From NCBI GenBank assembly GCA_041690355.1, contig JAWLHK010000008.1, positions 133,374 to 197,373 on the forward strand: a DNA stretch of 64,000 nucleotides. Direction: 5' to 3'. Below, piece by piece: positions 8,101 through 37,893 of the stretch (its first letter is position 1; each line of letters opens with the position of its first letter). Position numbers and translations under genes: made by a program. The notes under the pieces are model-generated. The model did no database searches. It saw only the letters and a list, made by a program, of their open reading frames with translations, and was not told the origin of the DNA. This stretch comes from a bacterium (GTDB lineage Bacteria; J088; JAWLBW01).

Positions 8101-8910
8101 ATGCGATCCGTTGTCCGAATCTTCCTCTTCGCGGCGGCCCTATACGCCGCCCTGAACCCCTCTTCTTCCGCAGCCGAGGAACTTCCCCGCTCGCGCTGGC
8201 CCGAGCTGCTGCAGCCCGCGCGCGTCGATGCATTGCTTACGGCCGCGCTGCAGCAATCGAAGCGCCGGCCCGACGATTTCGATGCGCACCTGCGTGTCGC
8301 CCAGGTCGGCTTCTACGCCTGGCGGCTGGAGAACAAGGACCTCAAGCGGCGCCTGCAGTTCGCGAACGTCGTCCTGCGCGCGGGCGAAGAGGCCGTGCGC
8401 CTCAAGCCCAATCACCCGGGCGGCCACCACTGGCTGGGCGCGGGGGTGGGCATGATCGGGCTGACGCAGGGGGTGCTCAATTCCCTGCAGCTGGTCCCGC
8501 GGCTCAAGGACGCCATGGAGAAGAGCGTCGAGCTCAACCCCGGATGGCTGCACGCGAGCGCCATGGCGCAGCTGGCGCGGCTCTACACGATGGTCCCCGG
8601 ATTTCCCGTCGCCATCGGCGACCTGGACAAGGCCGAGAAATACGCGCGGGAAGCCATCCGCCTCGAGCCCAACTACGCGCTGCAGCGGCTCTATCTTGCC
8701 GACCTGCTCTGGTACCGGGGGAAGAACGACGAAGCCCTCGCCGAGCTGGCCCGCCTCGAGAAGCTCAAGCCCGTTGACGAACTCACCTATTTCGCGCTGG
8801 AAACGAGCCGCGTCAAGGCACGTGAGCTGGCCGCGCTGATCCGCAAGGGCGAGACCCGGGCCCGTTTCTACGACGTGCTGAGCGACATTCAGCCGGGGCT
8901 CGTGCGCTGA
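8101..8910 (+). CDS. Secreted TPR protein, TatT/BstC-like
   Basis: Signal peptide and helical repeats with GVLNSL...LARLYTMVPGFPVAIGDLDKAEKY. GGGAGA RBS. Confidence 0.7.
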   Translation: MRSVVRIFLFAAALYAALNPSSSAAEELPRSRWPELLQPARVDALLTAALQQSKRRPDDFDAHLRVAQVGFYAWRLENKDLKRRLQFANVVLRAGEEAVRLKPNHPGGHHWLGAGVGMIGLTQGVLNSLQLVPRLKDAMEKSVELNPGWLHASAMAQLARLYTMVPGFPVAIGDLDKAEKYAREAIRLEPNYALQRLYLADLLWYRGKNDEALAELARLEKLKPVDELTYFALETSRVKARELAALIRKGETRARFYDVLSDIQPGLVR

Positions 8911-8954
8911 CCCGGAGAACATGGGACTCAAGATTTACCCAAGTCCAGAAAGCG

Positions 8955-8981
8955 AAAAGCCCCGGTGAAACTCACCGAGGC
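8955..8981 (-). terminator. Putative intrinsic terminator between convergent genes
   Basis: Hairpin gccccggtga-aac-tcaccgaggc followed by a short U-tract on the minus strand. Confidence 0.45.
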
Positions 8982-25298: not shown

Positions 25299-26031
25299 CA
25301 GCGCCAAGCGCCAAGAGCCAAGCCCCAAGCACTAAGCGCCAAGCGCTGAGGAAGCAAGGGCTTTCCGCTGGCGCGGCCCCCACCTGTCGGACGTCGGACC
25401 CCCCATCCGCTTCGCTACGGGGGGCAATGCGCCGGACTTCGGACCCCCCATCCGCTGCGCTACGGAGGGCAATGCGTCGGTGAAGCAAGGGCGCCGATCC
25501 CGGTATCCAATTCCGCACCGCTGGAAATCCTCAGCGCCCTGCAGGGGCGCCGGCCATTTGCCCAGGGCAGAGCCCTGGGCAGCAGAGGGGCCATATATTT
25601 TTTTGTCCTTCCCGCGAGCGTCGGCGAGCAGCGCCTACTCGGCCCCCACCGTGTGCTTCCCGTGCTGCAGGACTCCCCCGAACGGGGGCGTGGGCAGGAT
25701 GCCCAAGTGGTTCCCGACCCCAGCGGGGTCGCACTCTTGAGCCGGCAGCGCGGTGTAGAATCGTTTCCCCCCGGGCTCGGGAGCGCCGGCACGGCGCGAG
25801 CGAGTCGTCCTTTGCCCCCCACCGTGTGCGACCCGTGTTCCAGGACTCCCCCGAACGGGGGAGTGGGCAGGAACCCGAATTGCTACAACCTCGGCGGGGG
25901 GAGGCGCATGGCGCTCCCTCGCTGTCGACTTCCGCTCCGCTACAGTCCGTCAGCTCGGGACGAACGGAAAATTGGTCCTTGCCGACGCCCTTGCCGGCAA
26001 ATTGTCATTCGTCAATCGTAAATCGTCAATT
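25299..26031. repeat. Intergenic cluster of heptamer, 45-bp tandem, ~60-bp direct and REP-like repeats
   Basis: AGCGCCA-type heptamers at 25299-25349. 45-bp tandem at 25395/25440. Direct repeats at 25643/25816. ccgaccccagcggggtcgca at 25714. Confidence 0.8.
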
Positions 26032-26454: not shown

Positions 26455-27600
26455 TCATGTGACGAGCTTTCGCACACTAAGTACTGCCTCAGAAATTATC
26501 TGGGCTGCTTCTCGGATTTCTTCCCAAGTATTGAACTTCCCAATTCCAATTCGTAAAGTCCCATCGATATACTCGTCGGGCACCTTGATAGCCCTAAGGA
26601 CGTGCGAAGGCGATTCAACTCCCGAAGAGCATGCTGAACCGCGCGATACGGCTATACGATCCCTAATCCGTGCTATGATGGCGCTCGATGGTGTGCCGCG
26701 AAAACTGACGTTAAGGTTACCGCTTAGTCGCCTATCAAGTCCACCGTTCACGCGCATTTCAGGAATAATTGAAGATAGTTCATTAATGAGCCAATCTCGT
26801 TTCTCTTTGACTGATTCGCTATCAGTAAGCATTTCAGAATGCAGAATTCGACAAGCCTCACCGAAACCCGCAATAATCGGCACATTCTCTGTGCCTGGTC
26901 GAAGCTTACGTTCTTGCCCCCCCCCAAAGAGCAAAGGCTCTATTGAATCCGGGTCCTTTAGTACGAGAGCACCAACCCCTTTGGGACCATACATCTTATG
27001 GGCAGAAAATGCAGCAAAGAAAAAGGCTTCATGCTCAAAGGAGAAAGGCACCTTACCCAAGCTCTGAGAGGCATCGCAAACTAGACGACTGCCGTACTTT
27101 CCACAAAGATCGAGCACCTCAGACAACGGATAAACCACACCGATCTCGTTGTTTGCATGCATGCATATTACTAGGTCGAGACCTGAGCGTAGAGCCGACT
27201 CAAGATCATCAATGTTCAGCTGTCCGTCGGGGGTAATTTCGAGTGGCCTTACAGAGACTAGCTCCCTATGAACGAGGGCATCTACGGTTTCTATGACTGC
27301 TTTGTGTTCCAGTGGCATCACGCCAACGCGTACAGGCCGGTGCTTGCTCCGGGCAACGTATCCCTGTAGGACAAGGTTAATAGCTTCCGTCGCGCCGGAT
27401 GTGAAAACAACTTGCGATCTCTTGGCCCCCGCAAGTTGGGCTATTTCATTCCTCGCGCGGTCAATGGTTCGCCGTGCCTCGTCCCCATATGCATGGTCGG
27501 ATGAGCTAGCGTTTCCAAATGTATTTTCTAGGTGCCACACGACCAACGATCTCACCCGCGGGTCCAGCGGGGTAGACGCATTGTTATCTAGGTAAATCAT
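26455..27600 (-). CDS. sspA: Cysteine desulfurase (IscS/DndA/SspA-like)
   Basis: IYLDNNASTP, PLP lysine in SAHKMYGPKG and catalytic SRGSACSSG. Symbol inferred from context. Confidence 0.88.
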   Translation of the reverse strand: MIYLDNNASTPLDPRVRSLVVWHLENTFGNASSSDHAYGDEARRTIDRARNEIAQLAGAKRSQVVFTSGATEAINLVLQGYVARSKHRPVRVGVMPLEHKAVIETVDALVHRELVSVRPLEITPDGQLNIDDLESALRSGLDLVICMHANNEIGVVYPLSEVLDLCGKYGSRLVCDASQSLGKVPFSFEHEAFFFAAFSAHKMYGPKGVGALVLKDPDSIEPLLFGGGQERKLRPGTENVPIIAGFGEACRILHSEMLTDSESVKEKRDWLINELSSIIPEMRVNGGLDRRLSGNLNVSFRGTPSSAIIARIRDRIAVSRGSACSSGVESPSHVLRAIKVPDEYIDGTLRIGIGKFNTWEEIREAAQIISEAVLSVRKLVT

Positions 27601-27664
27601 GCCCATGGCGTTTTATGCCTTTGCCCATCGGCTGTGTGAGTGCTACGATGCATTTTTATCAACA

Positions 27665-28330
27665 ATGTCTCGGAATATGGACCAAGAGCTACGCTTTGAG
27701 TTTCATCAAGTTCAGCATTGCCCTGACCTGCCCGGAATTTATGCTTGGTACTACCGACCTAGAATACCATCCAAAGACGTCGACGACTGTATCGGCACTG
27801 TACTAAAGGAAGGGGGTAGCACACAAGCCGTGCAGGACTTCCTCTTGACCCACCTTGCCTCGTATTTTCGGGAGCTACCGTATAAGGCGCAGATTTTCGG
27901 ACAGCTGAAGGCCGAATACCGAGGCGAGCTCAACCACGTCGGCAAGTTGAGTTCCTCCCTCGTCGAAAGGTTGGCTGCGGAACCCGAACGCTTGCGCGAG
28001 TTAATACCGCTGCTAAGCAACACCGCTCCAATCTTTTCAGCACCCATTTATATCGGCGTCGCATCAGCCCAAGGACTTAGGACGCGCCTCTCGCAACATG
28101 TGAGGAAAATTAATGAGTTTTTGGAAGCGGAGGCAAGAGGGGAGGCTATGGAACTGATCGAGGCAGACGAACAAGGGTCATTTGCATACGAAGTCATCCG
28201 TCGAAAAATGGATCCAAATAACCTCGTGGTTTTTGCTTCGACTTTGCATCACGTCGGCTCGATTGGTCTCGAAAAGGATCTAGAGAACTTACTGAACCGG
28301 CTTTATTACCCCGTTTGTGGCCGCAACTAG
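27665..28330 (+). CDS. GIY-YIG-like nuclease with large insertion
   Basis: PGIYAWY...PIYIG followed by LRTRLSQH and C-terminal LENLLN. Start 27665 or 27677. Confidence 0.7.
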   Translation: MSRNMDQELRFEFHQVQHCPDLPGIYAWYYRPRIPSKDVDDCIGTVLKEGGSTQAVQDFLLTHLASYFRELPYKAQIFGQLKAEYRGELNHVGKLSSSLVERLAAEPERLRELIPLLSNTAPIFSAPIYIGVASAQGLRTRLSQHVRKINEFLEAEARGEAMELIEADEQGSFAYEVIRRKMDPNNLVVFASTLHHVGSIGLEKDLENLLNRLYYPVCGRN

Positions 28331-28341
28331 GTGGAATAACC

Positions 28342-30603
28342 ATGACATTCATTAAGAATTCCGTCGAATCAGGGCTCGACCTGACTGTCCATGGGTCCGT
28401 TGGTAGCTTCAAGATCCGGAAGAGCAACGGCGGAGGCAATGAAAGCGTTAAGGTCAAATACATACTCTCGCATGTCGCTTTTCGACTGGATGGGAGCCAC
28501 GAAGACAAACTCCTAAAGAACTTGGTTCCATTCAGGGAGACCTTTGAGGTCAACGAATTGGAATTTGACCAGATTCTCCAGAGAGACATCGATGACAGCC
28601 GAGTCGCCACCTCGTTAATACCGTATCTTCTCGGTGAAGACAGCAGCGGGAAAGTGAAGATCTTCCCGCCGATTGTTGTGGCGCTCTTGCCGATGGAGGA
28701 AGGTAAGTTGGCGGATTGGTATCCGGAGGTCAAGGAAACCGTGGAGCCAGAGCCGCAAAACCCGCGAATTCGATGGCATCTCCAGCAGTCCGGAGAGCCA
28801 GGCAAGGAAGTCTTTGCCTTCCGCCAGATGTCCAACGACGGCAAAATCTCAGCGCATGATTATGCAGAGCTTAAGATAAACTCGGCAACAAGCAACCTCG
28901 TCATCGTGGACGGACAGCACCGTGCAATGGCATTGTTGGCACTCCATAGAAACATTAAGTCTTGGCCTGACAAAGCGTCATCGTATAAGTCATATTATGG
29001 CATCTGGTCTCGGAAGAAATTGGAAGGTTATGATTTTTCCGAGATAAGTCTTCCTGTCATGATATGTACATTTCCGGAGCTGGATGGCACAGGTACCGAC
29101 GTTAAGGTGTTTGAAGCCTGTCGCAACATATTCCTTAGCCTAAATAAGAATGCTAAACCGGTATCACGGTCTAGGAATTACCTACTCGACGACAATGATA
29201 TAATATCGCTTTTCTTGCGCGACGTGCTATCAGAGATAAAACAAAATGATGTTGTGGGCGGGGCGCCACTCAGGCTTTGGAATGTTGAGTTAGATGCTGG
29301 ACAAGACAGGCAGTCACTGTCATCTCCGATGGCCCTAACGGGAACGATGCATCTTCATTTCTTAATTGAAAACTGGATGCTTAATCCGCTGGATTTTAGC
29401 GGTTTGAAGTCCAAAAGGCATCATCTTTCTGCCACATATCGTTTGACCCATGCTTTAAGGCGCTTAGGCGCAACTGACAAGCTTGGTAAGCAAGCCGCTG
29501 AAAGTACGACCCGTAACGCATTTTCACGACCCTCTGCGGATGTCCTGCGAAACCAGTTTAAGCAGATATACGGTAGCCGAATCGTTTTTGGCCTAGAGCG
29601 CTTTCGGCCCTACTGGGCTCACTGTAAGGCTAGCTCAGAGGTAGAGAAAGCTGTTAAGCAGAATGTGCCAGAGATTCACGCTGTCCTTTTTCAGGGACAG
29701 GGTATGGCGAGGGTATTCAACGATTACCTCGATAAGTTATCGACTAAGAGCAAGGAGTCCAAATCGGTACCAAAAGAGCTTGACGATACTCTCCGAGTCT
29801 TCCGTGATCAACGAGCCCAGATGGAGAAGTATATTGCAGAGTTCAAGAAAAAGAGAGTTGCGAGGCTGCTTGCGCTTAACGACAACGAGCTTGAAGATAA
29901 GCTAACCAACCGGGCGATAAGTGCACTTACTGAGCAATTCGACTCGACATTTACAACTTCGGCCTTTCAAGCCAGTCTGTTTCTCTCATTCTTTCATATG
30001 CTCGAGCAATTCGCAGGCAAGCAAGGCGTACCTTCTCCGGCAGACGCGACGATCCCTGTGAGTGAACTCTTCGAGGAATATTTAGATGCTGTGAATCGCA
30101 TCTTTCCAACGCCTTCGGATAACGCCAAACAGAAGGCTGCCAAGGCCCAGAAGCTTCTCGAGCTGTTTGTCGGGCGGGTTCAGAAGGATGGTTCGCGTAT
30201 TGACGTAGTTGCAAGCAGCGGGAACCTAAGGCAGCTCTTGGTCCCAGGCGAACTCAAACCGGACCTCTGGACTAGGTTTCGGTACCTATTTCTTGAACTC
30301 TGGAAGACGGAAAGTGCGGAACTAGGTGAGCTCATTGAGCATGAGCGCAAATTAGTTCGTCAATGGCTTCTTAGGGACCTGATCAATCGTAACATCAGAG
30401 TTCACTGTCAAACGGAAGGAATTGATGAAAGTGAACTTACGACGGAAGTGCAAAGGAAAATCCGTGAAGATTCGTGGGAGCAATTTAAGGATGCGCATAC
30501 TCCCTTGGACGTGAAGATACGGGAGAAAGATTTTAGGGACCACCTTCACGGTGAGGGCATGACTACCGACGGAGATGACGACGAAATAGATGGTGAAGAG
30601 TAA
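28342..30603 (+). CDS. Large DGQHR-domain (DndB/ParB-like superfamily) protein, 753 aa
   Basis: ILQRDID, FPPIVV, IVDGQHR and IFLSLNKNAKPV. Long unassigned C-terminus with acidic tail. Confidence 0.8.
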   Translation: MTFIKNSVESGLDLTVHGSVGSFKIRKSNGGGNESVKVKYILSHVAFRLDGSHEDKLLKNLVPFRETFEVNELEFDQILQRDIDDSRVATSLIPYLLGEDSSGKVKIFPPIVVALLPMEEGKLADWYPEVKETVEPEPQNPRIRWHLQQSGEPGKEVFAFRQMSNDGKISAHDYAELKINSATSNLVIVDGQHRAMALLALHRNIKSWPDKASSYKSYYGIWSRKKLEGYDFSEISLPVMICTFPELDGTGTDVKVFEACRNIFLSLNKNAKPVSRSRNYLLDDNDIISLFLRDVLSEIKQNDVVGGAPLRLWNVELDAGQDRQSLSSPMALTGTMHLHFLIENWMLNPLDFSGLKSKRHHLSATYRLTHALRRLGATDKLGKQAAESTTRNAFSRPSADVLRNQFKQIYGSRIVFGLERFRPYWAHCKASSEVEKAVKQNVPEIHAVLFQGQGMARVFNDYLDKLSTKSKESKSVPKELDDTLRVFRDQRAQMEKYIAEFKKKRVARLLALNDNELEDKLTNRAISALTEQFDSTFTTSAFQASLFLSFFHMLEQFAGKQGVPSPADATIPVSELFEEYLDAVNRIFPTPSDNAKQKAAKAQKLLELFVGRVQKDGSRIDVVASSGNLRQLLVPGELKPDLWTRFRYLFLELWKTESAELGELIEHERKLVRQWLLRDLINRNIRVHCQTEGIDESELTTEVQRKIREDSWEQFKDAHTPLDVKIREKDFRDHLHGEGMTTDGDDDEIDGEE

Positions 30604-30606
30604 AAT

Positions 30607-31401
30607 TCACAGGTGACAAGCTAAACAAGGCATCTCCCCTCCGTCCCCATCCAGCACCGTCTCCAAGACCTCTGCCAACGGCCGATTTGGCGCTTGAGCT
30701 TTCTCAAGCGCCATTTTTCTTTCGTGATCGGCGATGATTTGGTCCTTACGAGCCAGGATGTCGAGCAGCGACTCTCCTTCGGTCCAGAAGTATTGGCGGC
30801 CGTCGCTGTGCTCTTGCTCGTAAGCAAGAGCCTTCTGGAACAGATCCGGATGCTCCTCGGCTAGGCGCACCCACTCAATCTTCCTCTGGAAGAAGCAGAA
30901 AAAGCAGCCGGACCGAGTACGCCAACGATAATAATCGGGCGCCCCAACGCCGCTCTCCTCGAGGATGCGGAAGACGTCATCCTTGCGGATGCCCGCTTCT
31001 TTGAACGGGAAGACAGGCTTGATGTTGGGTTTCGTCGAGATATACCCCGACCGGTTCTCGTCTGCACGGATCGCGATGTAGCTGATCGCCTCGTCTTCGC
31101 CCACAAACTTTTCAAGCGGCTCGATCTTGAGCTGCTTGGTACACCAGCGAGCCTTGGCCGAGGGGAGAAAGCCATTGTGAACCTCAAGCCAATGGTCAAA
31201 ACCGCGCTCCGCGCTCAGGACCTGAACCTTGATTCCCAGACGGGCCTTCAGACGTTCGAGAAATTCATAGGTCTCAGGGAGTTCTTTTCCCGTGTCGCAG
31301 AAGAAGTACTCCATGTTCGGGACTTTGTCCCGCATGAATACGGCGAGCGCTGCGCTGTCCTTGCCCCCTGAAAGGCCCAGGATGTGTCGAACCTTGCTCA
31401 T
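30607..31401 (-). CDS. sspD: PAPS-reductase-family protein (SspD-like)
   Basis: PP-loop SGGKDS, RWCT, RSGCFFCFFQ and C-terminal CLAC. ATGA overlap with the ATPase gene. Confidence 0.85.
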   Translation of the reverse strand: MSKVRHILGLSGGKDSAALAVFMRDKVPNMEYFFCDTGKELPETYEFLERLKARLGIKVQVLSAERGFDHWLEVHNGFLPSAKARWCTKQLKIEPLEKFVGEDEAISYIAIRADENRSGYISTKPNIKPVFPFKEAGIRKDDVFRILEESGVGAPDYYRWRTRSGCFFCFFQRKIEWVRLAEEHPDLFQKALAYEQEHSDGRQYFWTEGESLLDILARKDQIIADHERKMALEKAQAPNRPLAEVLETVLDGDGGEMPCLACHL

Positions 31402-34400
31402 GCTTTCTCTACCTTTTCGTCGTCGACCATGAATGAGGCAAAGATGCGCTCGATTAAGGCGACAACCACCGCCTTCTGAAACTCCATCGAGTCGCGACCC
31501 TTTGTTCTCTTCTGAATGTCTTTGAGCAGACTCTCTGCGACGCTCTTCACGTCATCCGAATCCTCTTGGTTAAGCCAAATCACGTTGCTAAGCTCTTGAC
31601 CACCCGGCTGTAGGAGCGTGAGATGCCGAGGTGTGCTCTTGCTGGTGACCGGCAAGGTCGCCTGCGAAGCGAGAGACTCGAGACCAATGAACTGGCGTGC
31701 CAACTTTCGGGCACGTTGCTCAAAGGTTTTCCTGTCATCGTCCGTCCAGGCAGGGGCCGGTTTGTCGCCGATGATCATGAGGACTGCATCGAGCCACTCG
31801 TTCTCATCCGCAACGTCGTTGGCAAGTGCGATGAGAAGTTTCTGAAGCTCTCGGTCCGTACACTGATCCACCAGGGCCGCTGCCCTGGGCTTCAACGCCT
31901 GACGTAGGGACGCTGGCGAAATCCGGAAGCATTTACTGAGCTCTTCCAAACAAGCCGTCCGAAGATTGGGATACAGTCCGCTAAGCTCGCGCAGACATGT
32001 CACCAGCTTGTCACGGTAGCTCTCGATCTGCTGGGGCTTAGGCTTTTTACCCGCAGGGAAGGGCTCTTCGCCGCACGCTTGTGGGAGTGAGAAGAACAGT
32101 AGATGTTCCGGATCATTGCTCTCCAGAATCAATGCCCGAACCTCCTTGGCGACCTTGGAAAGTTGTCGCGTCTGCTTGGAGAAATCCGGTAGGCGAGCTC
32201 CGAAGAGTACCAAGGGGCGCACCAGGCTCATCACGGTGAGAGGCTTGTCCTTGGGTCGCTGGTCCTCGGCGATCAAAATGTCGGCAAGGGCCTGGAACAA
32301 AGCGCTTCTTTCTTTGTCTACACCCAGGAACTTGAACGAAAACTTCGCGGGGTGCTTTACCAGAAGCTCGAAGTGTTCGGCGCCCAAAACGGGGAGTAAG
32401 GTCCCATCTTTAAAGACGGAGACTTCTTCGCCATTTACCAGCAGGTAGACTGCCAGGAGAACGGGGAGCGGCCCTTCTTTTACTCCGTAGGGGGGTCTGG
32501 CCAGCTGGTCATAGAGTTCAGCCACTGTGCGCATGCCACCGGAGGAAGAGCGGCAGAAAGTATCAATCGCACTCCAAACATGGCGTACGCCTTTGGCCGT
32601 CGGAGCCTGTACACGGTGGCCATAATCGGCTTTCACGTGGATGCCGGTCTCGCGGACGGCGGAAGCGTACATGCTGTATTCGGGGCCATACCCCTCAATA
32701 CCGAGCCGCTCCTTCGATCCATCGTCGAGCAAGTGCTCAATCAGAAGTCGGCGTGCTTTCGCCCCTTGGGAAGTAAGTTCCCGGCGATTGAGAAGTTCGT
32801 TCCGAAGCTCGAGACCCTTCGCGTAGGTTTGATCGCACAGTTCTGACACCAGCTTATTCAGCGCACGGCTAGAGTCGATTGTGAGTTGCTGAGCATTAAC
32901 GTAGACAGCACAATCCTCGAGCCGCCGCCCAAACACCTGGGAAACGATGTCGTTCAAAACTGTTCGTGCGTGCAAGAGCCGTTCTCGAACCTCGCGACGG
33001 GCTACGCCATCGGTTTGCAGTTGCGGCGACTCTTTTTGGACGCGACGAAGAGCAGCGTACTCCTGGTAGGCACCATGTAGACGTTCGATATGCTTCGGCA
33101 CAAGCAGGATAAGCGGCTTGTCATCGGCGATAGACTTTGGGAGGACCTTCGGAACGTTGGCTCCAACCCAATGAACGATGAGGCCATCGCTATCTTTGTG
33201 TTCGGTTGATAGGTTGGCGAGCACTTTGGGGTCGTCTACGTATCGACGTTCGAAAAACCGGAGTGTCCCCGTTTCATAGCTATGGCGCTGGGCAACCAGG
33301 GGCCGCAGAGGAACCAGCTCCTGGAGACCTGCCCCAATATCTTCTCGCTCGGCCTCTAGGTTTTGATAGACGGCCGTTTCAATATCAAAATCGCTTCCCT
33401 CCCAAAGGCGAAGTTCGTCCGCCTGTTTTCGGTAGGTGACGACTTTCGCAGAAAGAAGGTCCTCAACCGTACGCGCCGCGGCCTTGAAAGCAGCCTTGTC
33501 GTCAGGGACGTCGAGAAGGGCAAGAACTACGAGGTTCTTCTTCGCGCGAAACGTACCAGTGGAAGCGAGAAGATTCAGAAGGGCGATTGCCTTGACTGCC
33601 CGAAACTGGTCGGCAGGCAAGTTGGATAGTTCCTCGACTTTCCCCTGAATCTCAACCCAGCGCTGTAAGAGAGGCCTTGAGGCCATCCCCACACCCACCG
33701 AGTTGGAAAAGTAGTCGTAGAGGCGATCGAGAGGGTATGGAGGTACCTTGCCGTCATACTCCGAGTCATCTAGGAACCGGCGGAACGAGAAGGGCTCCGG
33801 ACTGGTAAGAAACGTGAAAACCGAGCGATCGTTCTGCGCGAAGCGGCTGCTTAGAACTGGCAAAGCCACCGCTGTAATCGGGTGCAATGGCGCCGTAGAA
33901 GCGATAAGTTCCTTGGTAAGCCCTGAATTTGGGACGTCGCGTTCTAACGCGCTACTCCAACTGATTGCCCACGCATCAATGGTTGCACTGACAGACTGAT
34001 CACCCGAGCACTCAATCGCAGCCCCAATAAGCCGCAATGTCTGCTCTGTCGCCTCGGTGAAGGGGATATCTTCAAATCGCCCCTGCACCTTGCCCCATTC
34101 TGCTCGATGGGCTGCCGCCAAGCTGTGACCATACTCGGCAAAGGCCTGATGAAGAATGCCGATGACCGCAATCGTCGGCGACTTGCCGTCTGTCGGAAGT
34201 TCCGCAAGTTGCTGTAGAAGATAAAGGTCTTCAGACCCGGGATGGGAGACGATGAATTCGAGCGTCTTCCCCATCTCATCGAGGACAAGAATCACTCCCG
34301 TACCAGCCGCTTTGGCGACCTCTTGGACGAGTCTCACGACCTCGCCTTGTGGGATCTCATCCTTGTTCAGGGCAGTCTGCAAGCGTTCGAGTACATGCGG

Positions 34401-34845
34401 CTTTCGACCAATCGTCCAGAACTGCTCGGCACCACGCTCGAGCGCTCTCAGAATGGTGCGGCTCAACGGCTCGCGCTGAGAGGTCACGACCGCGCGAACA
34501 AAGCCTCGCGAGGGCACCCTCTTCGCCAGCGTCACCAGGGGGTGCTTCGCTCCCAGGTGCGACTTGGCGATAGATAACGCCTCGTGTCGGACGGCAGCAT
34601 CCTCGTCGGCCACCAAGGAGATCAGAAAGTGCGCCGCCGAAGATTTTCCGGTCCCGTAAACGCCTGTGAATGTAAATGCGCGGTTGAGGTCTGGCGTCTG
34701 GAGTGCGGTGAGCACGCGCTCAAGGGCTTCTACAGACCGCGACGTAGGGACATAGCCCCGTACCGCCTCGACCGCATTAAGATCTCGCTCTAAGTTAACC
34801 GAGCGAGTATACCTCCGTCGGAGGTCGAATATGCTGCTGAGTGGT

Positions 34846-34856
<11 letters not shown>
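31398..34856 (-). CDS. sspC: Large P-loop ATPase (SspC-like)
   Basis: RSVNLERD, Walker A GVYGTGKS, Walker B VLDEMGK, EWGKVQGRF, QNDRSVFTFL and PPYGVKEG. Confidence 0.85.
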
Positions 34857-35799
<943 letters not shown>

Positions 35800-35801
35800 G
35801 A

Positions 35802-36047
35802 CTATCGCATCACTCCCGAAAGGTGAAGCTGGCGCCGGTCGCTATCTGCAGGCGTCAGCTGGCAGGCGTACTGTTTGATCAGCCGATATTCCGATTCCGT
35901 AAAAAGGACTCGGTTGTCGCGAAAACGATGCCCTTGCGGCACCTTACCCTCGCTTCGCCACCGCCAGAATGTCTGCCGGTGAATGCCAAGGGAATCAAGT
36001 ACATCCGCGACTTCGTAGTAAGTTGTTCCGTCGATGGAGAGGGGCAT
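35802..36047 (-). CDS. Small MerR/AlpA/excisionase-like HTH protein
   Basis: VADVLDSLGIHRQTFWRWRSEGKVP...RVLFTE. Stop lies 2 bp before the sspB start. Confidence 0.8.
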   Translation of the reverse strand: MPLSIDGTTYYEVADVLDSLGIHRQTFWRWRSEGKVPQGHRFRDNRVLFTESEYRLIKQYACQLTPADSDRRQLHLSGVMR

Positions 36048-36146: not shown

Positions 36147-37589
36147 TCACGAGCGCCGGAGCTGGTGCCCTCGTAGGGAGTAGCCCCTTGCTTCTAAACG
36201 TTGTTGCCACGCATCTCGGGTCCCGATTCCAAGCACGTCATCCAAAAGGCCGGCCTTTTCTTCTTGCTTGGTCAATCGGGCGAATTTTTCCCTATTCGGA
36301 TAGGAGAGCCCAACGAATTCTTCCTTGCGGTGGAGTATGGGCGGGTTTTCTGAGTCTGCGTAGTTCCGGTACGTCACCCGAAAGGTTTGTAGGTCAACCG
36401 AGAGAGAGCCGGCCAGGGAAGGGTGCGGGTCGGTATCGAATTCCGGGTAGTAAAGGTAGGAGACCTTCGGCTTCTTGCGGGAAAGCTTGATCAGATTCGC
36501 GCCCTCTACGACACCCAGATACGCTCGAGCGCAACCTTCGTAGACTTTTAGCAAGGCAGGAAGGTCGGTAAGTGATGACTCGTGGACGTACAGGGCTTCT
36601 TGGGTACACTTGCCAACGGGGGACTCAGCGCATACACGACTGACCTCATCTAGACGGCCGAGGCTAAAAAGGAGGTCATCCGACAGAGAACAAGCTTTCT
36701 TGTACGTTGAGAAAAACGCTTTTACGTCGCCCTGCATTGCCGGCGAGAGTTCGTGATATGCAGGTCGCCCGTCGAAGCGACTCAGCGCAAGAAAGACTGA
36801 AAGCTCTTGCGAACGCTCCTCACGAACCCGGTCCCAGTCTACGTCTGAAACGCGGCGGATCGTGCCAATGGCCCGTGAATAGCTTCCGAAGGCCTGAAGC
36901 ACTTCTGCTTCTTTGGCAAATTCGCCTTCAATCGGTGGCCGCCCTCGTTCGGCAATGAACTCAACTAGAGCATCGAGTAACCCGCGATGCGCATCGTAAA
37001 GCTCGCTGGACCTCGACGTACGTGCGATGGGCAGGCGGCGCCGATACCGGGCTGCAGCGAACTGGTGGCGTTTCGCTTCGTCACGAAAGATGTAGAAGAC
37101 TCCTGGCGCCGCAGCGAGCGCAGAAAGCCCTAGGTGCTCCTCAATCCAGCCCTTTAGTTCTTGCTGTTCAAAAAACTTCTGAAAGGTGCCCCTTTTGGTT
37201 AGGCAGCCATCGGCAAAAAAGGCGTGGACGTCTTCCCGCGCTTCTAGCGTGAGTCGAGCGGAAACGATGAGGGTGTCCCTGGCTAAGGCCCAAGCACTCC
37301 GGAGAGCCGCCACTCTCTCCTGCGGCGATTCGATTACGTTCACGACGTAACCGAGGTTCACGACGTCGGCCTCTGTCCGTTCCCCGGCAGGGCGATGAAC
37401 GGGATCCCAACCCGAAACGGTGATATCTCGTTGGGCGAGGAGCGCGACGTCTTCGCCATGACCACACCCATAATCGAAGACCGACGTTCCTTGCGTAATG
37501 ATCCCATCGGCTAGCGCGAGTCGAACGGGACGCGAGAAGTCGTGTCGTCGAATAGCTGTCTTGTGACGCGCGATGTGTGATACAGACAT
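36147..37589 (-). CDS. DNA phosphorothioation-associated putative methyltransferase
   Basis: RHKTAIRRHDFSRPVRLAL, VFDYGCGHGED, VVNLGYVVNVIE, TFQKFFEQQEL and NPPILHRKE, as I recall for this family. GGGAG RBS. Confidence 0.82.
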   Translation of the reverse strand: MSVSHIARHKTAIRRHDFSRPVRLALADGIITQGTSVFDYGCGHGEDVALLAQRDITVSGWDPVHRPAGERTEADVVNLGYVVNVIESPQERVAALRSAWALARDTLIVSARLTLEAREDVHAFFADGCLTKRGTFQKFFEQQELKGWIEEHLGLSALAAAPGVFYIFRDEAKRHQFAAARYRRRLPIARTSRSSELYDAHRGLLDALVEFIAERGRPPIEGEFAKEAEVLQAFGSYSRAIGTIRRVSDVDWDRVREERSQELSVFLALSRFDGRPAYHELSPAMQGDVKAFFSTYKKACSLSDDLLFSLGRLDEVSRVCAESPVGKCTQEALYVHESSLTDLPALLKVYEGCARAYLGVVEGANLIKLSRKKPKVSYLYYPEFDTDPHPSLAGSLSVDLQTFRVTYRNYADSENPPILHRKEEFVGLSYPNREKFARLTKQEEKAGLLDDVLGIGTRDAWQQRLEARGYSLRGHQLRRS

Positions 37590-37893
37590 GGGCTCCCTGG
37601 ATCGCTTCACATACTAGCACACTACACACACTAGCCTAATTACCTCACCGCCCGTCCAGATATGCTCCCATTGACGCACCGAGTCTGCGTCATTTTGACC
37701 CCCTGTTTCCCAATCCTTTCAACAACCTGCCGCTGTGCAATTGATTGCACAAACGTGTGGGGGGAATGCCCATCGGACCGACGCAGAGGCCACGGTGGAT
37801 AGGACCCTCGTCATTCCGTTCCGCCGGCTGGGGCACCGCCAAGCTTTACAATCCACCCCATCCCGGCTATGGTATTGCTGTGCGGAGGGAACC

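Follow-up and report, generated by a model that had tools for sequence, protein, structure and literature searches.

We analyzed a pair of genes at positions 27665-30603 of a 64,000-nucleotide stretch of bacterial DNA (the window; contig JAWLHK010000008.1 of assembly GCA_041690355.1), where they lie within a cluster of ssp genes for DNA phosphorothioation (PT). The first gene encodes a small protein of 221 amino acids that is predicted to be a GIY-YIG nuclease, and the second encodes a large protein of 753 amino acids with a DGQHR motif, which its sequence places in the DndB clade. We suggest, by analogy with two known proteins and with a probability of roughly 0.55, that the pair is a PT-linked effector split over two proteins and acting in the manner of SspE or DndI. 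SspE is a ParB-like DGQQR NTPase that is stimulated by PT-DNA and fused to an HNH nickase (PMC8092258). DndI is the same fusion of a DGQQR NTPase stimulated by PT DNA and an HNH nickase, and the arginine of its DGQQR motif is required for both the PT-stimulated ATPase activity and defence (PMC11662687). We favour the split effector because the functions of SspE and DndI would here sit on separate chains, of another ParB clade and another nuclease superfamily, and because the pair fills a slot after sspD, behaves as an exchangeable module and can have its partner nuclease replaced. In the window, the pair consists of the following features:

27665..28330, + strand: small gene (221 aa, P0001), from the open reading frame (ORF) and its translation; predicted GIY-YIG-fold nuclease
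28342..30603, + strand: large gene (753 aa, P0002), from the ORF and its translation; DndB-clade DGQHR protein
28444..29241, + strand: predicted N-terminal ParB/Srx (DndB-type) domain, residues ~35-300 of the large protein, from fold matches and invariant motifs
29254..30561, + strand: C-terminal helical domain, residues ~305-740 of the large protein, from the secondary structure in the AlphaFold2 (AF2) model and the alignment

Structure prediction, which the original prediction had proposed as a check, gave confident AF2 models of both proteins, with a predicted local distance difference test (pLDDT) of 92.4 for the small protein (75 homologs) and of 89.8 for the large protein, and a predicted template modelling score of 0.89 for the latter. 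In a VIA-align comparison of the small protein with 48,161 chains in PDB, the five best matches were all GIY-YIG proteins (Z 8.1-7.1), namely the N-domain of UvrC (1ycz, Z 8.1, 86 of 89 residues), I-TevI (1ln0, Z 8.0), T4 EndoII (2wsh, Z 7.9), 2lwf (Z 7.7), which we take to be a GIY-YIG domain, and R.Eco29kI (3mx4, Z 7.1). The sixth match was a further restriction endonuclease (9u75, Z 4.8), and the remaining ones scored at most 4.3. Foldseek ranked R.Eco29kI and UvrC first, if weakly (E 0.09, probability 0.9). The GIY motif is located at residue 24 and the YIG motif at residue 129, and all 75 sequences share G24, Y26, Y129, G131, R141, H145 and E207. In the HMMER alignment, the catalytic residues correspond to PGVY19 and Y29-IGKAKRLSN-R39-LRS-Y43 of UvrC (Y19, Y29, R39, Y43), positions for which PDB holds point-mutant entries, and we infer from its place within the aligned range that E207 may be the equivalent of the metal-binding catalytic glutamate. 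The small protein, which has no DNA-binding domain of its own, was called GIY-YIG-like from its sequence in the original prediction. The predicted fold, the structural matches and the invariant residues support this assignment, and point to a nuclease with an intact catalytic set.

The small protein is an unusual member of the GIY-YIG proteins in one respect. The spacer between the GIY and YIG strands usually has about 10-15 residues, whereas the small protein has an insert of about 100 residues (residues ~31-126), which contains two helical segments and a β-hairpin. The separation between Y26 and Y129 is 102 residues, and the insert is found in all 75 aligned members. No model in Pfam, NCBIfam or PADLOC matched the small protein at significance in the first scan; its score on Pfam GIY_YIG_2 is 15.3 bits, below the cut-off of 22.4, and PF01541 (GIY-YIG) has weak matches in 39 of the 75 members, with a best E-value of 2.2e-4. 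The family contains 949 cluster representatives at E<=1e-3, and the best 150 of these are all stand-alone proteins of 116-334 amino acids. In the public annotation, the gene for the small protein (P0122) starts internally and yields only 161 amino acids without the GIY strand, while the longer frame of 221 amino acids from position 27665 is backed by the alignments of homologs. Because it leaves out a conserved N-terminal strand, the public start of P0122 is probably wrong.

The four motifs originally described for the large protein are all present, with QR at residue 80, FPPIVV at 108, DGQHR at 190 and FLSLNKNAKPV (the FxxLNxxAKPV motif) at 264-274, and residues Q80, R81, F108-P110, D190-M196, F264, N268 and A271 are invariant in 58 sequences. 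The Pfam DndB family (PF14072) matches residues 81-309 of the 762-aa ORF with 32.7 bits, above the cut-off of 29.1, as it does all 58 members of the family, and the match covers only positions 33-180 of the 338 positions in the model. The score on the NCBIfam DGQHR domain (TIGR03187) is 40.0 bits, below the cut-off of 58.85. In addition, hhalign aligned residues 69-297 to a DndB-like protein of 450 amino acids (from locus L015) with a probability of 96.8%. The VIA-align matches of the N-terminal domain (residues ~35-273) were PadC (Z 6.1), SspE (6jiv, Z 5.8, root-mean-square deviation 4.6, 153 residues aligned), KorB (Z 5.2), ParB-N (Z 5.1), sulfiredoxin (Z 4.9) and DndI (9jfl, Z 4.6, 134 residues aligned); these values, 4.6-6.1, are modest for a query of 753 residues, yet they are consistent. 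A Foldseek search of the whole 753-aa model against PDB gave nothing at E<=0.001, and a sequence search of PDB with the profile of the large family gave a chance match only.

The C-terminal domain, of about 440 residues, is helical and conserved, with A541, F542, Q543, F588 and E652 being invariant. No invariant histidine follows residue 300 in the 58 sequences and, as had been noted from the sequence, the large protein has no HNH string and a single EH, in EHERK at residue 666. Neither fold, sequence nor Pfam comparisons gave a convincing match for residues 305-740, and a protein-atlas search with a language model returned only leads for the same residues, none with a score of 0.9. The HEPN reading that Makarova et al. 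proposed for DndB was also considered for this domain and was set aside, since no invariant Arg/His pair is found there. Its sequence and its modelled structure suggest that the large protein contains a nucleotide-binding ParB/Srx module, which belongs to the DndB clade, and it carries no nuclease motif of its own. RefSeq labels its relatives as DndB. In one locus (L046, 9944-12273), the large gene is represented by two overlapping ORFs of 419 and 389 amino acids, which may reflect a frameshift, a pseudogene or an assembly error.

The two genes occur together in a wide range of bacteria. From 105 stretches with relatives of the large gene, identified in a scan of one genome per species, 80 loci were kept. 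The relatives are found in the Proteobacteria, Cyanobacteria, Actinomycetota, Acidobacteriota, Planctomycetota, Verrucomicrobiota, Myxococcota and Poribacteria. In 68 of the 80 loci, and thus in 68 of the 74 that are testable, the small gene is co-directional with the large gene and directly upstream of it; the upstream sequence is too short in six of the 12 loci without it. The projected junction between the two genes is between -16 and +12 nucleotides in 67 of the 68 loci. The original prediction had been staked on co-occurrence in other genomes, which is what these loci display. Since at least 540 relatives of the large protein, with about 750 amino acids, were identified, and the small family is represented by its 949 clusters, and since the genes are paired in most of the loci, both are real genes and not chance ORFs. 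A locus in a Scytonema sp. (L029, 6514-12361) contains two pairs of small and large genes placed back to back on opposite strands, the second of which is far more divergent.

The pair is also present on the conjugative plasmid pASTEX02 of the cultured strain Asticcacaulis excentricus CB 48 (L084, NC_014819.1), where the gene order is small gene, "DndB", sspA, sspB, sspC and sspD. The small gene on this plasmid is intact in the DNA (8316-8975) and stops one nucleotide before the start of "DndB", and it is absent from the distributed gene table. More generally, the large protein is labelled "DndB" in the databases, and the small protein is often missed or truncated. Genes for a DUF262 protein and for a protein kinase are located just past sspD on the plasmid. 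A random sampling of 400 genomes from the class of one pair-bearing genome (G002) recovered no large gene; the family is too rare for co-occurrence to be assessed with this design. A complex prediction for the small and large proteins gave a score of 0.00, which counts neither for nor against binding.

Six loci have room upstream of the large gene but lack the GIY-YIG gene (L005, L053, L050, L072, L073 and L026). A gene for an HNH nuclease adjoins the large gene in five of these, if the SspE of L073 is included. In L005 and L053, an HNH endonuclease gene (Pfam HNH and HNH_4, above the cut-offs) is located directly upstream and is co-directional, while the large gene of L050 and L072 borders on a divergent HNH_2 gene. 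In L073, a true SspE is encoded upstream of the large gene, and in L026 a TIGR04096-like methyltransferase gene is placed directly before it. The presence of an HNH gene where the GIY-YIG gene is missing fits with a sensor to which the nuclease is supplied in trans. A PADLOC scan of 129 neighbouring proteins from 27 loci identified SspE in two loci, L031, which also has the full pair, and L073, both with E=0, and no SspFGH among these proteins. Because the large protein co-occurs with SspE in these two loci, it is not simply a substitute for SspE.

The pair is linked to the ssp genes in most of the loci. The sspD gene is present in 62 of the 80 loci, where it is directly upstream of the pair and co-directional in 43, farther upstream in four, convergent and downstream, as in the window, in 11, and co-directional and downstream in four. 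The slot directly after sspD, which the pair holds in 43 loci, is taken by SspE in L073. In two loci from the Poribacteria (L058 and L064), the pair is placed between sspD and sspB-sspC. The pair is followed in L064 by a gene for a protein of 817 amino acids with a weak match to HATPase_c_3. The fetched stretch is devoid of ssp genes in seven loci that bear the pair. Five genomes with such a locus, of unreported completeness, include two with an SspB elsewhere, which is located about 5 kb past the locus for G002 and on a separate contig for G001, and three that showed none. Other defence genes are abundant in the neighbourhoods of the pair (Pbe, Thoeris-like, Lamassu-like, type IV restriction endonuclease and Cas12k).

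To describe how the pair has evolved relative to the modification genes, we correlated pairwise protein distances for 44 loci and the window, which, being computed across related sequences, are descriptive only. The correlation was 0.94 between the small and large proteins and 0.93 between SspC and SspD, while the correlations between the pair and SspC or SspD were 0.47-0.54 (Spearman 0.09-0.24). The partial correlation between the small and large proteins, given SspD, was 0.93. The high correlations within the modules and the low correlations between them indicate that the pair, on the one hand, and sspC and sspD, on the other, are two units that were recombined. The pair is not common next to sspD. 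From 80 metagenomic loci that are closest to the SspD of the window, and hence a biased sample, 47 have at least 3 kb downstream; two of these contain the pair, three contain an SspE-like gene, and 42 contain neither. Because only two of the 47 loci have it, the pair is an optional accessory outside the modification core, about as frequent as SspE in this biased sample. Shorter DndB-like ORFs of about 440-480 amino acids, with no small nuclease gene, were observed near or after sspD in four loci (L106, 6406-7719; L111, 2626-4059; L150, 2432-3868; L015, 19136-20485), and may be a separate Ssp-linked group of DndB-like proteins.

In the window, the pair is part of a low-GC island at about 26.0-38.0 kb, with a GC content of 0.47-0.59 in 1-kb windows compared to about 0.67 in the flanks. 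The other features of the island are:

26455..27606, - strand: sspA, cysteine desulfurase (PADLOC SspA 3.4e-117; Pfam Aminotran_5)
27607..27664, no strand: divergent intergenic region of 58 bp from the start of sspA to the start of the small gene, from the coordinates
30607..31401, - strand: sspD, PAPS-reductase-like (PADLOC SspD 1.6e-115)
31398..34865, - strand: sspC, BrxC-like ATPase (PADLOC SspC E=0, 1191 bits)
34846..35799, - strand: sspB, DUF4007 (Pfam DUF4007 3.9e-93; PADLOC SspB 1.2e-114)
35802..36047, - strand: small helix-turn-helix (HTH) gene of 81 aa upstream of sspB (Pfam HTH_17 4.7e-5, below the cut-off)
36147..37610, - strand: DNA phosphorothioation-associated putative methyltransferase (NCBIfam TIGR04096 586 bits, cut-off 150)

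The ORFs and the PADLOC matches bear out the layout originally described, that is, two co-directional genes 11 bp apart between sspA and sspD on the opposite strand. The gap of 11 bp contains a Shine-Dalgarno-like AGGTGGA, and the large gene and sspD are convergent, with stop codons separated by 3 bp. The HTH gene and the TIGR04096 methyltransferase gene form the head of the sspBCD operon in the window, and a homolog of this methyltransferase is found in 19 of the 80 related loci. The promoter scan called no consensus promoter in the 58-bp region between sspA and the small gene, and both promoter and terminator scans were at background level. A strong terminator-like hairpin on the + strand (30688-30713; 11 pairs and a T-run) is located 85 nucleotides past the stop of the large gene, within the convergent 3' end of sspD.

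The GC content is itself a mosaic, being 0.49-0.51 in sspA and the small and large genes, and 0.55-0.57 from sspD through the methyltransferase gene. No tRNA was found at the borders of the island, nor was an integrase, a mobility gene or a flanking direct repeat recognized there. To the left of the island (25300-25900) there are repeats, including two tandem units of 45 nucleotides (25388-25477), a repeat of 67 nucleotides at 25643 and 25816 with 87% identity, and repeats of the AGCGCCAAG type with a spacing of 14 nucleotides (25300-25346). PADLOC identified no DndC, DndD or DndE in the island, with no matches to the DndD and DndE models, and the DndC models matched only the sspD gene, weakly and as secondary matches (E 3e-6 and 1.3e-5). 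Neither protein of the pair matched SspF/G/H or DndF/G/H in PADLOC. The genome to which the window belongs is 100% complete, has one copy of the large gene, and represents a phylum for which the collection has only five species genomes. The large gene is missing from the other four, which fits with a horizontal acquisition of the island. The genome has no match to the SspE model PDLC02783, nor to the SspF model PDLC02793, although the latter is a weak blank since the SspF control matched no genome.

If the pair is a split effector, both genes would form one operon for a two-subunit effector that is attached to the SspABCD phosphorothioation system. The large protein would be the sensing and switching subunit, in which the DndB-type ParB/Srx domain may bind, and probably hydrolyse, nucleoside triphosphate (NTP) at the DGQHR site, with DNA and its PT status as the trigger, and in which the helical C-terminal domain is a likely platform for the partner. 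The GIY-YIG protein would be the catalytic subunit that nicks or cuts DNA. In this way, NTP hydrolysis that depends on PT would be coupled to nuclease damage of phage DNA, as in the single chains of SspE and DndI. The PT modification might activate the module, as it does SspE, or shield self DNA from it, as for DndI and SspFGH. We infer complex formation, NTPase activity, PT sensing, the direction of the PT control and the anti-phage function of the pair from the analogy with these systems.

The main rival to the split effector is a DndB-type repressor, the alternative named in the original prediction, which would be modulated by nucleotides and would set the expression of the ssp genes and the density of PT, with the nuclease being accessory or unrelated. 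DndB is a proven repressor of its own operon, dndBCDE (PMC4507180), and the large protein is tied to it by the Pfam scores above the cut-off, with matches in all 58 members, by the hhalign probability and by the RefSeq label. Moreover, the pair diverges from sspA across only 58 bp in the window, and L073 and L026 have a large gene without a separate nuclease partner. However, a repressor leaves unexplained why the large gene has a near-obligate and translationally coupled nuclease partner with an intact active site, and why this nuclease is replaced by HNH proteins. The large protein is also twice as large as DndB, to which the match is limited to less than the full Pfam model (33-180 of 338), and the pair is usually located at the 3' end of sspBCD (43 of 80 loci), evolves independently of SspC and SspD, is present in only two of the 47 sampled sspD loci, and is sometimes far from the ssp genes. 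We consider such a repressor to be rather unlikely. Another explanation is that the pair is a PT-independent defence or toxin-antitoxin-like module, in which a ParB-like NTPase restrains a GIY-YIG toxin and which is found near ssp genes through the clustering of defence genes. The seven pair-bearing loci with no ssp gene in the fetched stretch, the many other defence genes nearby and the movement of the pair as its own module would be expected from this explanation, but the link to sspD, which is present in 62 of 80 loci and is both adjacent to the pair and co-directional with it in 43, is far tighter than in an ordinary defence-island neighbourhood. Since the pair is also embedded between sspD and sspB in L058 and L064, and two of the five genomes with an ssp-free locus have SspB elsewhere, we judge PT independence to be improbable.

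Slightly less probable again is a role in the modification itself, where the pair would provide or edit the nicks needed for inserting sulfur, or else take out or repair PT sites, and would have no role in restriction. The pair shares an operon with sspBCD in 43 of 80 loci and is located within the operon in L058 and L064, and GIY-YIG domains act in repair, as in UvrC, the best fold match. However, 45 of the 47 sspD loci have no pair, which argues that it is not needed for modification, SspABCD alone is the published minimum for PT synthesis (PMC8092258; PMC12914056), and the pair shuffles relative to SspC and SspD. Several points weigh against the split effector. No fused protein of the small and large types was found among the best 150 of the 949 small-family representatives, nor among longer proteins, the latter being weak evidence. 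All characterized proteins of the DndB family repress transcription. In L050 and L072, type IV restriction models also match the HNH_2 neighbours, which may for this reason be independent defence genes, and the large protein may have a role that is independent of the small protein, since SspE is encoded beside the pair in L031 and beside a lone large gene in L073. The ssp-free loci, and the descriptive nature of the distance correlations, count on the same side. The original prediction of a split analogue of SspE is thus retained in part: the predicted ParB/Srx domain with DGQHR, the lack of a nuclease motif in the same chain, the conserved nuclease partner and the link to ssp agree with it, whereas the large protein is by sequence of the DndB clade and not of the DUF262/SspE family, and co-occurs with SspE in two of 27 loci.

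More tentatively, and at slightly less than even odds, the analogy extends to a third, split class of PT-linked Ssp restriction effectors, in which a DndB-family, NTP-driven sensor of PT and DNA would license an interchangeable nuclease in trans, mostly of the GIY-YIG type and in some lineages of the HNH type. If so, DndB-type proteins of the Dnd clusters may also have roles in the control of effectors. In the survey by Wang et al. 2021, 2,211 of 2,678 sspBCD clusters, about 84%, had no known restriction partner (PMC8092258), and the pair is a conserved candidate partner for such clusters. As an effector, it would represent a new architecture for PT-based immunity, with a sensor and a GIY-YIG nuclease on separate chains, would add a second function to the DndB family, and would offer an easy experimental system. 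No description of the pair was found in the paper listings and passages that the literature search covered. The main texts of the comparative-genomics studies of Dnd and BREX cover nucleases encoded close to Dnd genes and treat DndB as a ParB enzyme, and these main texts do not mention this Ssp-linked pair. The pair is conserved and apparently unstudied, and would be of an already known kind, a PT-coupled ParB-type NTPase with a nuclease, in a split GIY-YIG form that appears to be new.

Among known systems, SspE resembles the pair in its organization. Both are encoded beside sspBCD, both have an N-terminal domain with DGQxR, QR and FxxxN-type motifs, for which the ParB/Srx fold of SspE is predicted in the large protein, and both would pair a nucleotide-binding sensor with a nuclease; SspE (6jiv) is also among the best fold matches of the N-terminal domain of the large protein. 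However, SspE belongs to the DUF262 family, and the large protein P0002 has no match to SspE in PADLOC, an hhalign probability of only 1% to the SspE of L031, and weak matches to GmrSD_N in three of 58 members. The DUF1524/HNH nuclease of SspE is part of the same polypeptide, whereas a separate GIY-YIG polypeptide is found here, and the helical C-terminal domain of about 440 residues with no invariant histidine is unlike SspE. DndI shares the logic of a sensor and a nuclease that act on PT-modified genomes, and its structure (9jfl) matches the N-terminal domain, but it is a fused protein with an HNH nuclease that is linked to Dnd rather than Ssp, and no sequence similarity to the pair was detected. 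DndB has the same N-terminal sequence family and the DGQHR motif as the large protein. It is about half the size (~40 kDa; the homodimer is 79 kDa, PMC4507180), is encoded at the start of dndBCDE and lacks a nuclease partner of its own, whereas the large protein has 753 amino acids and is encoded in an ssp cluster, after sspD in 43 of 80 loci. The small protein resembles the N-domain of UvrC, I-TevI, T4 EndoII and R.Eco29kI in its predicted fold and in the set of Tyr, Tyr, Arg, His/Tyr and Glu residues, but differs in its insert of about 100 residues and in that no Pfam GIY-YIG model reaches its cut-off. Finally, SspFGH and DndFGH are, like the pair, multi-gene restriction modules attached to PT modification genes, but they consist of unrelated proteins, such as SspF with a Walker-A motif and the FtsK-like SspH (PMC8092258).

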